Origin: Candidatus Pacearchaeota archaeon
GTDB taxonomy: Archaea > Nanobdellota > Nanobdellia > Pacearchaeales > GW2011-AR1
Length of the DNA stretch: 12,628 bases
Assembly (NCBI GenBank): GCA_018303825.1
Contig: JAGVXK010000015.1
Coordinates: 1-12,628 of the forward strand
Direction: 5' to 3'
Under the pieces are notes generated by a model, which made no database searches, was not told the origin of the DNA, and saw only the letters and a program-made list of their open reading frames with translations. Of this stretch, positions 11,462 through 12,628 are shown piece by piece. The position numbers and the translations under genes are program-made. How positions within the stretch are numbered: the first letter of the stretch is position 1; every line of letters starts with the position of its first letter.

Positions 11462-12331
11462 ATGAAATTAACAAATATACATTGGATTGGAATAACAATT
11501 GCGGCAATTATCTTAATTTTAGATTTAATTTTCTTCTTTGGAAAGCATGATAGAAATTTATTTCTATTTTTAATTGGGATAGGAATATTAGTTGCCGCAA
11601 TGCCATTCATGCTTGACTTGATAGTCGAAAGCAGGAGAGATGAAGAAATAAATGAAATGTTCCTTGAATTTTCAAGAAATCTTGCAGAGAGCGTCAGCAC
11701 CGGAACACCAGTAAGCAAAAGCATAGTTAATATGAAAGCGAAAAACTACGGCTCTCTTACCCCTTATGTAAAAAAACTTGCCAATCAGATAGAACTGGGA
11801 ATACCAATGCATAGGGCGTTGGATAACTTTGCATCTGATGTTGACAATGTTGTTATAAACCGGGCAATCGCCCTGATAATGGAGGCTGAAAGAGCTGGAG
11901 GAGAAATAGATTACATATTAGATTCTGTCGCAAAAGCAATATTTGAAATAGAAAAGCTGAAAAAAGAAAGGAGAGCAGCAATATATAATCTTGTTGTGCA
12001 GGGATATATCATCTTTTTTGTATTCATAGGCATAATGCTGGTTATGCAGTTCAAAATACTTCCTTTGACAACGGGGATAGGCGGTCCGGGGTTATCAGAC
12101 CTTAATTTAAATTCTTTAACCAGCGACAATCAGCAAATTAGCACTCCCCAGATATCCATAAGCGACATTTCAAACCAATTTCTTTATTTGATAATTGCCC
12201 AGGGATTTTTTGCTGGATTGATAATTGGAAAACTGGCAGAAGGAAACATTAAGGCTGGATTGGAACATTCATTTATTCTTGTGATAACTGCATTCTTAGT
12301 TTCATTTGGAGCTAGGCTTTTATTCGGGTGA
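11462..12331 (+). CDS. Second T2SS-F/TadB-TadC-like platform protein
   Basis: 'EMFLEFSRNLAESVSTG', 'KKLANQIELGIP', 'IMEAERAGG', 'QGFFAGLIIGKLAEG', TM helices. Confidence 0.9.
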   Translation: MKLTNIHWIGITIAAIILILDLIFFFGKHDRNLFLFLIGIGILVAAMPFMLDLIVESRRDEEINEMFLEFSRNLAESVSTGTPVSKSIVNMKAKNYGSLTPYVKKLANQIELGIPMHRALDNFASDVDNVVINRAIALIMEAERAGGEIDYILDSVAKAIFEIEKLKKERRAAIYNLVVQGYIIFFVFIGIMLVMQFKILPLTTGIGGPGLSDLNLNSLTSDNQQISTPQISISDISNQFLYLIIAQGFFAGLIIGKLAEGNIKAGLEHSFILVITAFLVSFGARLLFG

Positions 12332-12454
12332 ACTACCCTATGGTAAGTTATGAAGCATCAAATAATGTCCAGTTAAACTATTTTTATCTTTTAATATTTA
12401 TTTCCTGCCTTGCTTTATCTCCAAGGCAAGGCCTTGGGGTATTAGGAAGAGTGA
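12328..12454 (-). mobile_element. 127-bp non-autonomous IS200/IS605 derivative (PATE/MITE-like)
   Basis: Minus strand: target TTAT (12458-12455), then 15 nt ending in guide AATA, then the hairpin at 12419-12439. The right end has guide GATG, a decayed hairpin and GGTAGTTCAC. Excision restores TTC GGA TAA for the upstream gene. Confidence 0.75.
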
Positions 12455-12506
12455 ATAATATATTGATTTATTCAGATATTTTATTGACTATAAGATTTAA
12501 TATTAT

Positions 12507-12628
12507 GTGACATCCTCCTAGCCCTAAAAGGCTAGGCGTCCAGTTAGTCTTATTGCGTCGCGTGGTGCAACGATTGATTTTCTATATATGTAAATACTTG
12601 TTCAAATTCTGCTCCGACTGAACAGCAA
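12507..12628 (-). mobile_element. Right end of an IS200-type element extending beyond the window
   Basis: Minus strand: guide GACG, perfect 7-bp hairpin CCTAGCC/GGCTAGG (12517-12536), then AGGATGTCAC. Directly follows the tnpA 3' end. Confidence 0.85.
12550..12627 (-). CDS. tnpA: IS200/IS605 Y1 transposase, C-terminal fragment (truncated by window)
   Basis: Manual translation CCSVGAEFEQVFTYIENQSLHHATQ* contains the SVG...YIxNQ catalytic-tyrosine helix motif, adjacent to the right-end hairpin. Confidence 0.8.
   Translation of the reverse strand, partial: CCSVGAEFEQVFTYIENQSLHHATQ

Follow-up and report, generated by a model that had tools for sequence, protein, structure and literature searches.

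The window analysed here is an entire contig (C1; 12,628 bp) of the genome G000 (806 kb, 34% G+C, 86% complete) of a DPANN archaeon, homologues of whose proteins are recorded under Candidatus Pacearchaeota, and it carries on its plus strand a gene for a T2SSF/TadC-FlaJ-like pilus platform protein of 289 aa (Pfam T2SSF, 56.5 bits), the 3' end of which reads TTC GGG TGA, with the stop codon at 12329-31. A short element of 123 bp (12328-12450) or 127 bp (12328-12454) lies in antisense against this gene, and its right end (RE) covers the TGA as well as position 3 of the final codon (12328). Another multi-copy IS200-type element, here called IS-X, occupies the two extremities of the window, with its left end (LE) at 1-93 and its RE at 12507-12628, both on the minus strand. 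The platform gene and the parts of the small element are as follows.

11462-12331, plus strand: T2SSF/TadC-FlaJ-like pilus platform gene, 289 aa (ORF list; Pfam T2SSF)
12328-12332, minus strand: RE terminal TTCAC with the cleavage tetranucleotide TCAC, read as G-TGA-A on the gene strand (same end in relatives)
12333-12359, minus strand: RE spacer TAG, degenerate RE hairpin (12336-12355) and guide-position GATG (12356-59) (family comparison)
12360-12418, minus strand: internal core, which has lost about 60 bp (junction around 12360-12366) and contains the best-conserved AT-rich block among the copies (copy alignment)
12419-12439, minus strand: subterminal LE hairpin, arm CCCCAAGG, loop CCTTG, arm CCTTGGAG (match to the LE hairpins of the elements in G015 and on C17)
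12440-12450, minus strand: 11-nt LE spacer TCTTCCTAATA with guide-position AATA (12440-43), where the left end of the family starts (family comparison)
12451-12459, minus strand: ambiguous junction, TCAC (12451-54) adjoining TTAT (12455-58) or ATTAT (12455-59) (sequence)

With its 123 to 127 bp the window copy is too short for a transposase and contains no tnpA; the sole ORF over the element (12328-12510, 60 aa, GTG start) runs within the repeat and reaches the RE of the neighbouring IS-X. The LE hairpin is intact, with seven of eight pairs of the Watson-Crick type, while the RE hairpin shows one stem mismatch and two T:G pairs. This degenerate RE hairpin, together with the 12-16% divergence between the window copy and the sister copy with the same internal deletion, suggests that the window copy is old and probably immobile. 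Single-strand folding of either strand of the window copy was no better than that of shuffled sequences (z = -1.4 and -1.0), and an Rfam scan of four copies assigned no family to the element, its only matches being a tRNA elsewhere and, over the IS-X RE (window 12494-12575, minus strand), a sub-threshold match to the HgcC RNA (22.3 bits against a gathering threshold of 50, E = 0.1).

The window copy belongs to a repeat family that was found at about 13 loci of the 0.8-Mb genome by BLAST and with a profile built from five complete copies, the other copies having the same boundaries. Copies are 73-90% identical and lie beside unrelated genes. Complete copies measure about 185 bp (e.g., C12:4584-4770 and C4:33092-33272), and the roughly 60 bp of interior sequence that is missing from the window copy is missing from the copy split between C2 and C6 by exactly the same deletion, whereas the copy at C22:18767-18840 has a different internal deletion and the one at C5:3708-3756 is reduced to a form of about 45 bp that consists only of the fused ends (TTTAT, 8 nt of LE, RE hairpin, TCAC). 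A further copy was located on the unbinned metagenome contig L074. Of 60 related genomes searched, 57 gave no match to the family and the other three only short partial ones, so that within this set it is essentially confined to the present genome. The possibility that the segment is fixed ancestral sequence, shared by relatives and without further copies, is contradicted by these relatives lacking the element and by the sister copies.

The two ends of the family are well defined. The LE sequence TCTTCC follows directly after TTTAT in nine of 11 copies, and the RE of 11 copies finishes in TCAC (six), TTAT (three), TTAC (one) or TCAT (one), which always conforms to T-Y-A-Y, or R-TRA on the gene strand. 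Both ends bear a hairpin in direct orientation, its arms 8 bp long and its 5-nt loop reading TCTTG on the minus strand, and the arms show compensatory changes between copies. At the guide positions AATA and (G/A)ATG are conserved, the RE hairpin being preceded by (G/A/T)ATG in every copy as well as in both tnpA-bearing elements described below. An integron attC-like reading was ruled out, since the copies are dispersed singly and their ends are IS200-like.

The same ends are found on elements that do encode a transposase, and this homology supports the original prediction of a transposase-less IS200/IS605 derivative, a palindrome-associated transposable element (PATE). In the genome itself, an intact single-copy IS200-type element at C17:12177-12727, with the left flank TTGAT, not TTTAT, encodes a TnpA of 145-151 aa (Y1_Tnp, 101.7-101.9 bits) in which the HVH and catalytic Tyr motifs are visible in the translation. 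Upstream of its tnpA lie an 11-nt spacer, a hairpin with the loop TCTTG and the tnpA leader, and downstream GATG, a second hairpin with the loop TCTTG, 4 nt and TCAC; the family profile matches the LE of this element (nhmmer, E = 2.5e-4). A complete element in genome G015 is closer still, having an LE that is almost identical to that of the window copy (TTTAT, an 11-nt spacer ending in AATA, hairpin arms CCCCAAGG and CCTTGGGG, then ATAAAGC) and an RE composed of GATG, hairpin, 4 nt and TCAC. When 185,579 species genomes were scanned for the pattern, 16 such REs were recovered, in eight other DPANN genomes (L090-L105). Where the upstream sequence was readable, they follow a TnpA C-terminus (14 of the 16 REs); L092 is a copy without tnpA, and L094 has a related TnpA-like tail interrupted by a stop. 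Every one of the 16 terminates in TCAC, and the next base, the first of the flank, is always a pyrimidine, which suggests a target preference at position +1. A Y1_Tnp search of the genome returned just two IS200-type transposases, the second of these tnpA genes lying at contig ends, and showed no RAYT-type gene; no TnpB-type domain scored above the cut-off in the genome.

Which strand is transposed determines which of the two boundary motifs belongs to the element, and an internal control was provided by IS-X. The LE of IS-X follows (W)TTAA, and its RE finishes with GTCAC after the C-terminus of its tnpA. With 11 left-end and 10 right-end contig termini, IS-X has broken the assembly, and one of its copies lies inside the C2/C6 copy of the small family (C2:73934-74093 and C6:11190-11349), where it links the 3' ends of the two contigs. 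For this insertion the window copy serves as the uninterrupted reference site, from which it can be read that the target (W)TTAA stays in the flank upstream of tnpA and that the TCAC end lies inside IS-X. The same layout, with the target in the flank and the cleavage motif inside, is known from IS608 (PMC5934647; PMC5027513). By homology, the small-element family has TTTAT as its target and TCAC as its own RE, and the minus strand of the window is the active (top) strand, in agreement with the original prediction. Wobble pairs in the hairpins showed no informative asymmetry between the strands (8 G:T vs 5 A:C), so that the strand call rests on homology and the IS-X control.

The opposite assignment, in which the plus strand is the top strand, insertion took place 3' of R-T-R-A after native TGA or TAA stops and the element supplies nothing to the gene, would be in keeping with a gene-side tetranucleotide that varies (GTGA, ATAA, GTAA, ATGA) next to a nearly constant far-side ATAAA, and also with the missing wobble asymmetry. 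However, in the tnpA-bearing relatives TCAC is located downstream of tnpA, 4 nt past the hairpin, and TTTAT upstream of tnpA, 11 nt before the hairpin, which is the arrangement of IS608 (PMC5934647; PMC5027513), and the IS-X reference site likewise places TCAC inside the element and identifies the upstream motif as the target. Native G-TGA-A gene ends are moreover rare and hard to square with five or six TCAC copies, while the restriction of RE variation to C/T exchanges fits AT-biased drift in this AT-rich genome if the bases in question are by now part of a stop codon and a synonymous position. We therefore regard an insertion behind native stops as very unlikely.

The position of the RE relative to genes was scored for the ten copies with an intact RE. 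In six of them, or seven when copy C17a at a contig edge is counted, the terminal TTYAY (R-TRA-A on the gene strand) overlaps a stop codon that belongs to a real gene upstream. The TRA of the element is the stop of a long upstream ORF in C1, C12, C23 and C17b, in C19 and C6 the final base of the element forms the third position of the stop, and in C17a the frame is open to the contig edge. The genes concerned are genuine (T2SSF, DUF4159, NUDIX, nucleotidyltransferase and a conserved 395-aa protein); the DUF4159 domain ends 2 aa before its stop, and the C-terminus of the C23 protein lies within one residue of that of its closest homologue. Based on crude gene calls, 124 stop-overlapping TTTAT sites compare with 1,873 intergenic ones and make up 6.2% of tolerable sites, so that under a uniform null at least six overlaps among ten copies have a probability of 1e-5, or of 3.5e-4 if half of the intergenic sites are discounted. 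The idea of a general tolerance of such ends at stop codons, suggested earlier for TCAC ends at TAA stops, is thus borne out by the sister copies of this family. Furthermore, only six ORFs of 120 codons or more have a G-TGA-A context, two of them with a PATE alongside, which fits a stop derived from the element.

This association is specific to the tnpA-less family. A general habit of TCAC-ended IS200 elements in this genome was rejected, since none of 12 IS-X REs coincides with the end of a real long ORF (the lone open frame at an IS-X RE, 64 codons at C1, is a spurious ORF inside the element), and for the autonomous relatives stop overlap was largely rejected as well, with one case in 16; the C17 element lies 51 nt beyond a convergent stop. 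The scarcity of overlap among autonomous relatives suggests that the enrichment may mainly reflect the survival of harmless copies rather than targeting, although targeting or use by the host may be an alternative cause.

Host use in its strongest form would mean that the repeat is a 3'-end module, a terminator or an mRNA-stabilising hairpin comparable to REP/BIME, that has been kept by selection after genes. The strongly non-random location straight after co-oriented genes would be expected of such a module, as would the best conservation falling on the AT-rich core with its T5 runs on the gene strand and the missing stop association of the autonomous relatives. In contrast, different copies have lost different internal parts, the hairpins of the window copy have decayed, another IS has split one of the copies, and the family is absent from 57 of the 60 related genomes, the remaining three having only short partial matches; taken together, a module maintained by the host is a very unlikely explanation. 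The T5 run at 12381-85 on the gene strand, inside the conserved core, could nevertheless terminate archaeal transcription.

The consequence of the insertion for the platform protein was assessed from its homologues, which were present in 39 of 41 genomes searched at identities of up to 65%. In the inspected homologues and in the nearest metagenomic relatives (about 70% identity) the C-terminus is at the same position, many of these proteins having a final Gly, and none of them has the element downstream of the gene. The protein ends in ...LFG as its homologues do, which indicates that the insertion left its C-terminus unchanged. Removal of 12328-12454, i.e., joining 12327 to 12455, gives TTC GGA TAA, and removal of only 123 bp leaves the present end TTC GGG TGA and fits equally well. 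Both elements of the original prediction that concern the coding sequence are in accordance with these data, namely that the protein is the same with or without the element, and that the terminal GTGA (TCAC on the minus strand) gives the third base of the Gly codon and the TGA stop.

Less certain is the left boundary, and with it the sequence before insertion. In the family the left end TCTTCC begins 11 nt from the hairpin, while the TTAT that had been proposed as the target lies 15 nt away, and the left junction of the window copy, with TCAC between TCTTCC and ATTAT, is unique in the family. One interpretation is a 123-bp element at an off-consensus target TTCAC, with G-TGA-A as the native stop and the gene untouched; it demands no odd chemistry, at the cost of a very rare G-TGA-A gene end and of a mismatch between target and guide position. 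The other is the 127-bp element of the original prediction, inserted at (A)TTAT with GGA TAA as the old end of the gene. This uses a common type of site, 63 long ORFs ending in A-TAA-T, and ATTAT is a target of related IS200/IS605 elements (PMC4227781); its cost is an unexplained addition of 4 nt at the LE that is identical to the RE cleavage site. The proposed extent and target are plausible, but the shorter element at TTCAC is about equally likely. Depending on this choice of 4 nt the old stop would have been either TGA or TAA, with the same protein in both cases. The nearest platform-gene homologues with available DNA end in GGA TGA or GGA TAA and, with about 70% identity, are too distant to favor one ancestor over the other. 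Although GTGAA forms a perfect 5-bp direct repeat around the window copy (12328-32 and 12451-55), a DDE-type MITE with a 5-bp target-site duplication is most improbable, because terminal inverted repeats are missing, the two hairpins are in direct orientation, the flanking pentanucleotides differ in most other copies (TTTAT vs TTCAC) and the ends are homologous to IS200-type elements.

The empty allele that was expected from the original prediction did not come to light. Two forms were predicted, the gene end continuing directly into GGGTGAATAATAT, or GGATAATAT, and neither turned up in metagenome contigs searched for exact patterns with 0-30 nt permitted at the junction (0 hits). The element is present in all five other assemblies with a gene for the identical platform protein, the second member of the protein cluster (99% identical) has no contig on record, and an empty site was not found for any copy of the family. 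The past mobility of the copies and their exact boundaries are consequently deduced from the comparison of the copies with each other and with their relatives; the occurrence of the same internal deletion at two unrelated loci, in the window copy and in the C2/C6 copy, provides indirect support for mobility.

In summary, the element is very probably an old, internally deleted PATE, inserted in antisense at a stop codon, which was mobilised in trans by an IS200-group Y1 transposase and swapped the stop of the platform gene. Such a PATE consists only of both hairpin-bearing ends of an IS of the IS200 group (IS200/IS605 family) without the transposase, and a Y1 (HUH) transposase like that of C17 is the most likely source of mobilisation by single-strand 'peel and paste'. 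The LE would be joined 3' of a T-rich pentanucleotide (TTTAT), and the RE would carry its own cleavage site TCAC. In reverse complement the target reads A-TAA-A, a common stop context, and the RE reads G-TGA-A, which also holds a stop. Since both target and RE are stop codons in reverse, an antisense insertion at a stop would part the old stop from its gene and put that of the element in its place, with no change possible in the gene beyond the synonymous third position of its final codon.

Short transposase-less elements of this kind are known from Haloquadratum walsbyi and other haloarchaea, from which PATEs were described (Dyall-Smith et al., 2011; PMC3119063), and the present family fits their published description and is a new representative of this known kind in DPANN archaea. 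PATEs, too, have no room for a transposase and lack terminal inverted repeats, their near-terminal palindromes are similar to those of IS605-type transposons in the same genomes, and they form heterogeneous families with core deletions down to ends-only forms of about 50 bp and are frequently interrupted by other mobile elements. Haloarchaeal PATEs make no target duplication; in the present family the flanking pentanucleotides usually differ, the window copy showing a 5-bp direct repeat. The copy at C5:3708-3756 resembles the terminal-only PATEs of about 52 bp in Haloquadratum. Unlike the haloarchaeal PATEs, the DPANN family derives from a tnpA-only IS200-group element, and its RE overlaps and replaces host stops in most copies, a habit not met in the passages of PMC3119063 that were consulted. 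A systematic swap of stop codons was not found in the literature searched, which is not proof that it is undescribed.

Comparable similarities and differences apply to better characterised relatives. As in IS608 (PMC5934647; PMC5027513), the subterminal hairpins are formed on one strand, the LE of most family copies is placed beside a fixed target that is left in the flank, the RE ends with its own cleavage tetranucleotide, and each hairpin has a conserved guide position of 4 nt on its 5' side. However, the motifs are TTTAT and TCAC here as opposed to TTAC and TCAA in IS608, the spacings are 11 and 4+4 nt as opposed to 19 and 10, and tnpB is missing here. The guide-cleavage pairing network of IS608 is non-linear (PMC5934647), and the pairing of AATA with TTAT and of GATG with TCAC noted earlier is putative here. 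TTGAT, ATTAT and TTTAT are the insertion targets of group A IStrons and related IS200/IS605 elements, which terminate in TCAG (PMC4227781). They share with the present family these T-rich targets, including the ATTAT beside the window copy, and the strategy of harmless insertion, but theirs depends on a self-splicing RNA, whereas here the stop would be regenerated at the level of DNA. Similar to REP/BIME sequences with their RAYT (TnpA-REP; PMC3333891; PMC8266576), the copies are short hairpin repeats tied to IS200/IS605 ends and situated downstream of genes; they differ in their low copy number (about 13 loci), in the RAYT-type gene not seen in this genome and in having, unlike single REP hairpins, a pair of hairpins together with target and end motifs of the IS type.

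Cleavage motifs that are stop codons when read backwards would make an insertion at the end of a gene silent, and this offers a concrete, sequence-level reason why relics of single-strand transposons can survive in genomes that have hardly any DNA to spare. It would also account for the rare G-TGA-A stop contexts of this genome, and it implies that annotation pipelines will label transposon sequence as stop codons. The target TTTAT and the end TCAC together define a DPANN-wide IS200 lineage. More speculatively, the TTTAT target and the TTCAC RE might be co-adapted as the reverse complements of stop contexts (A-TAA-A and G-TGA-A), with derivatives colonising gene ends by exchanging one stop for another and some of them being kept as 3'-end or terminator modules. 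We put this forward only tentatively; if it is true, gene ends may be the sole niche for non-autonomous copies in the ultra-compact genomes of DPANN archaea.

Two observations concern the surroundings of IS-X. At C13:46477-46540 a short palindrome is made up of two partial IS-X REs in inverted orientation, and there is no transposase in its vicinity. In relatives, a gene for an FmrO-family methyltransferase converges on the platform gene; the idea that such a gene ends at 12468-12506 of the window was ruled out, the FmrO homologue of this genome being intact at C19:214-978, beside an IS-X left end, and C1 and C19 are probably joined via one IS-X copy (window 12455-12506; C19:1-978).
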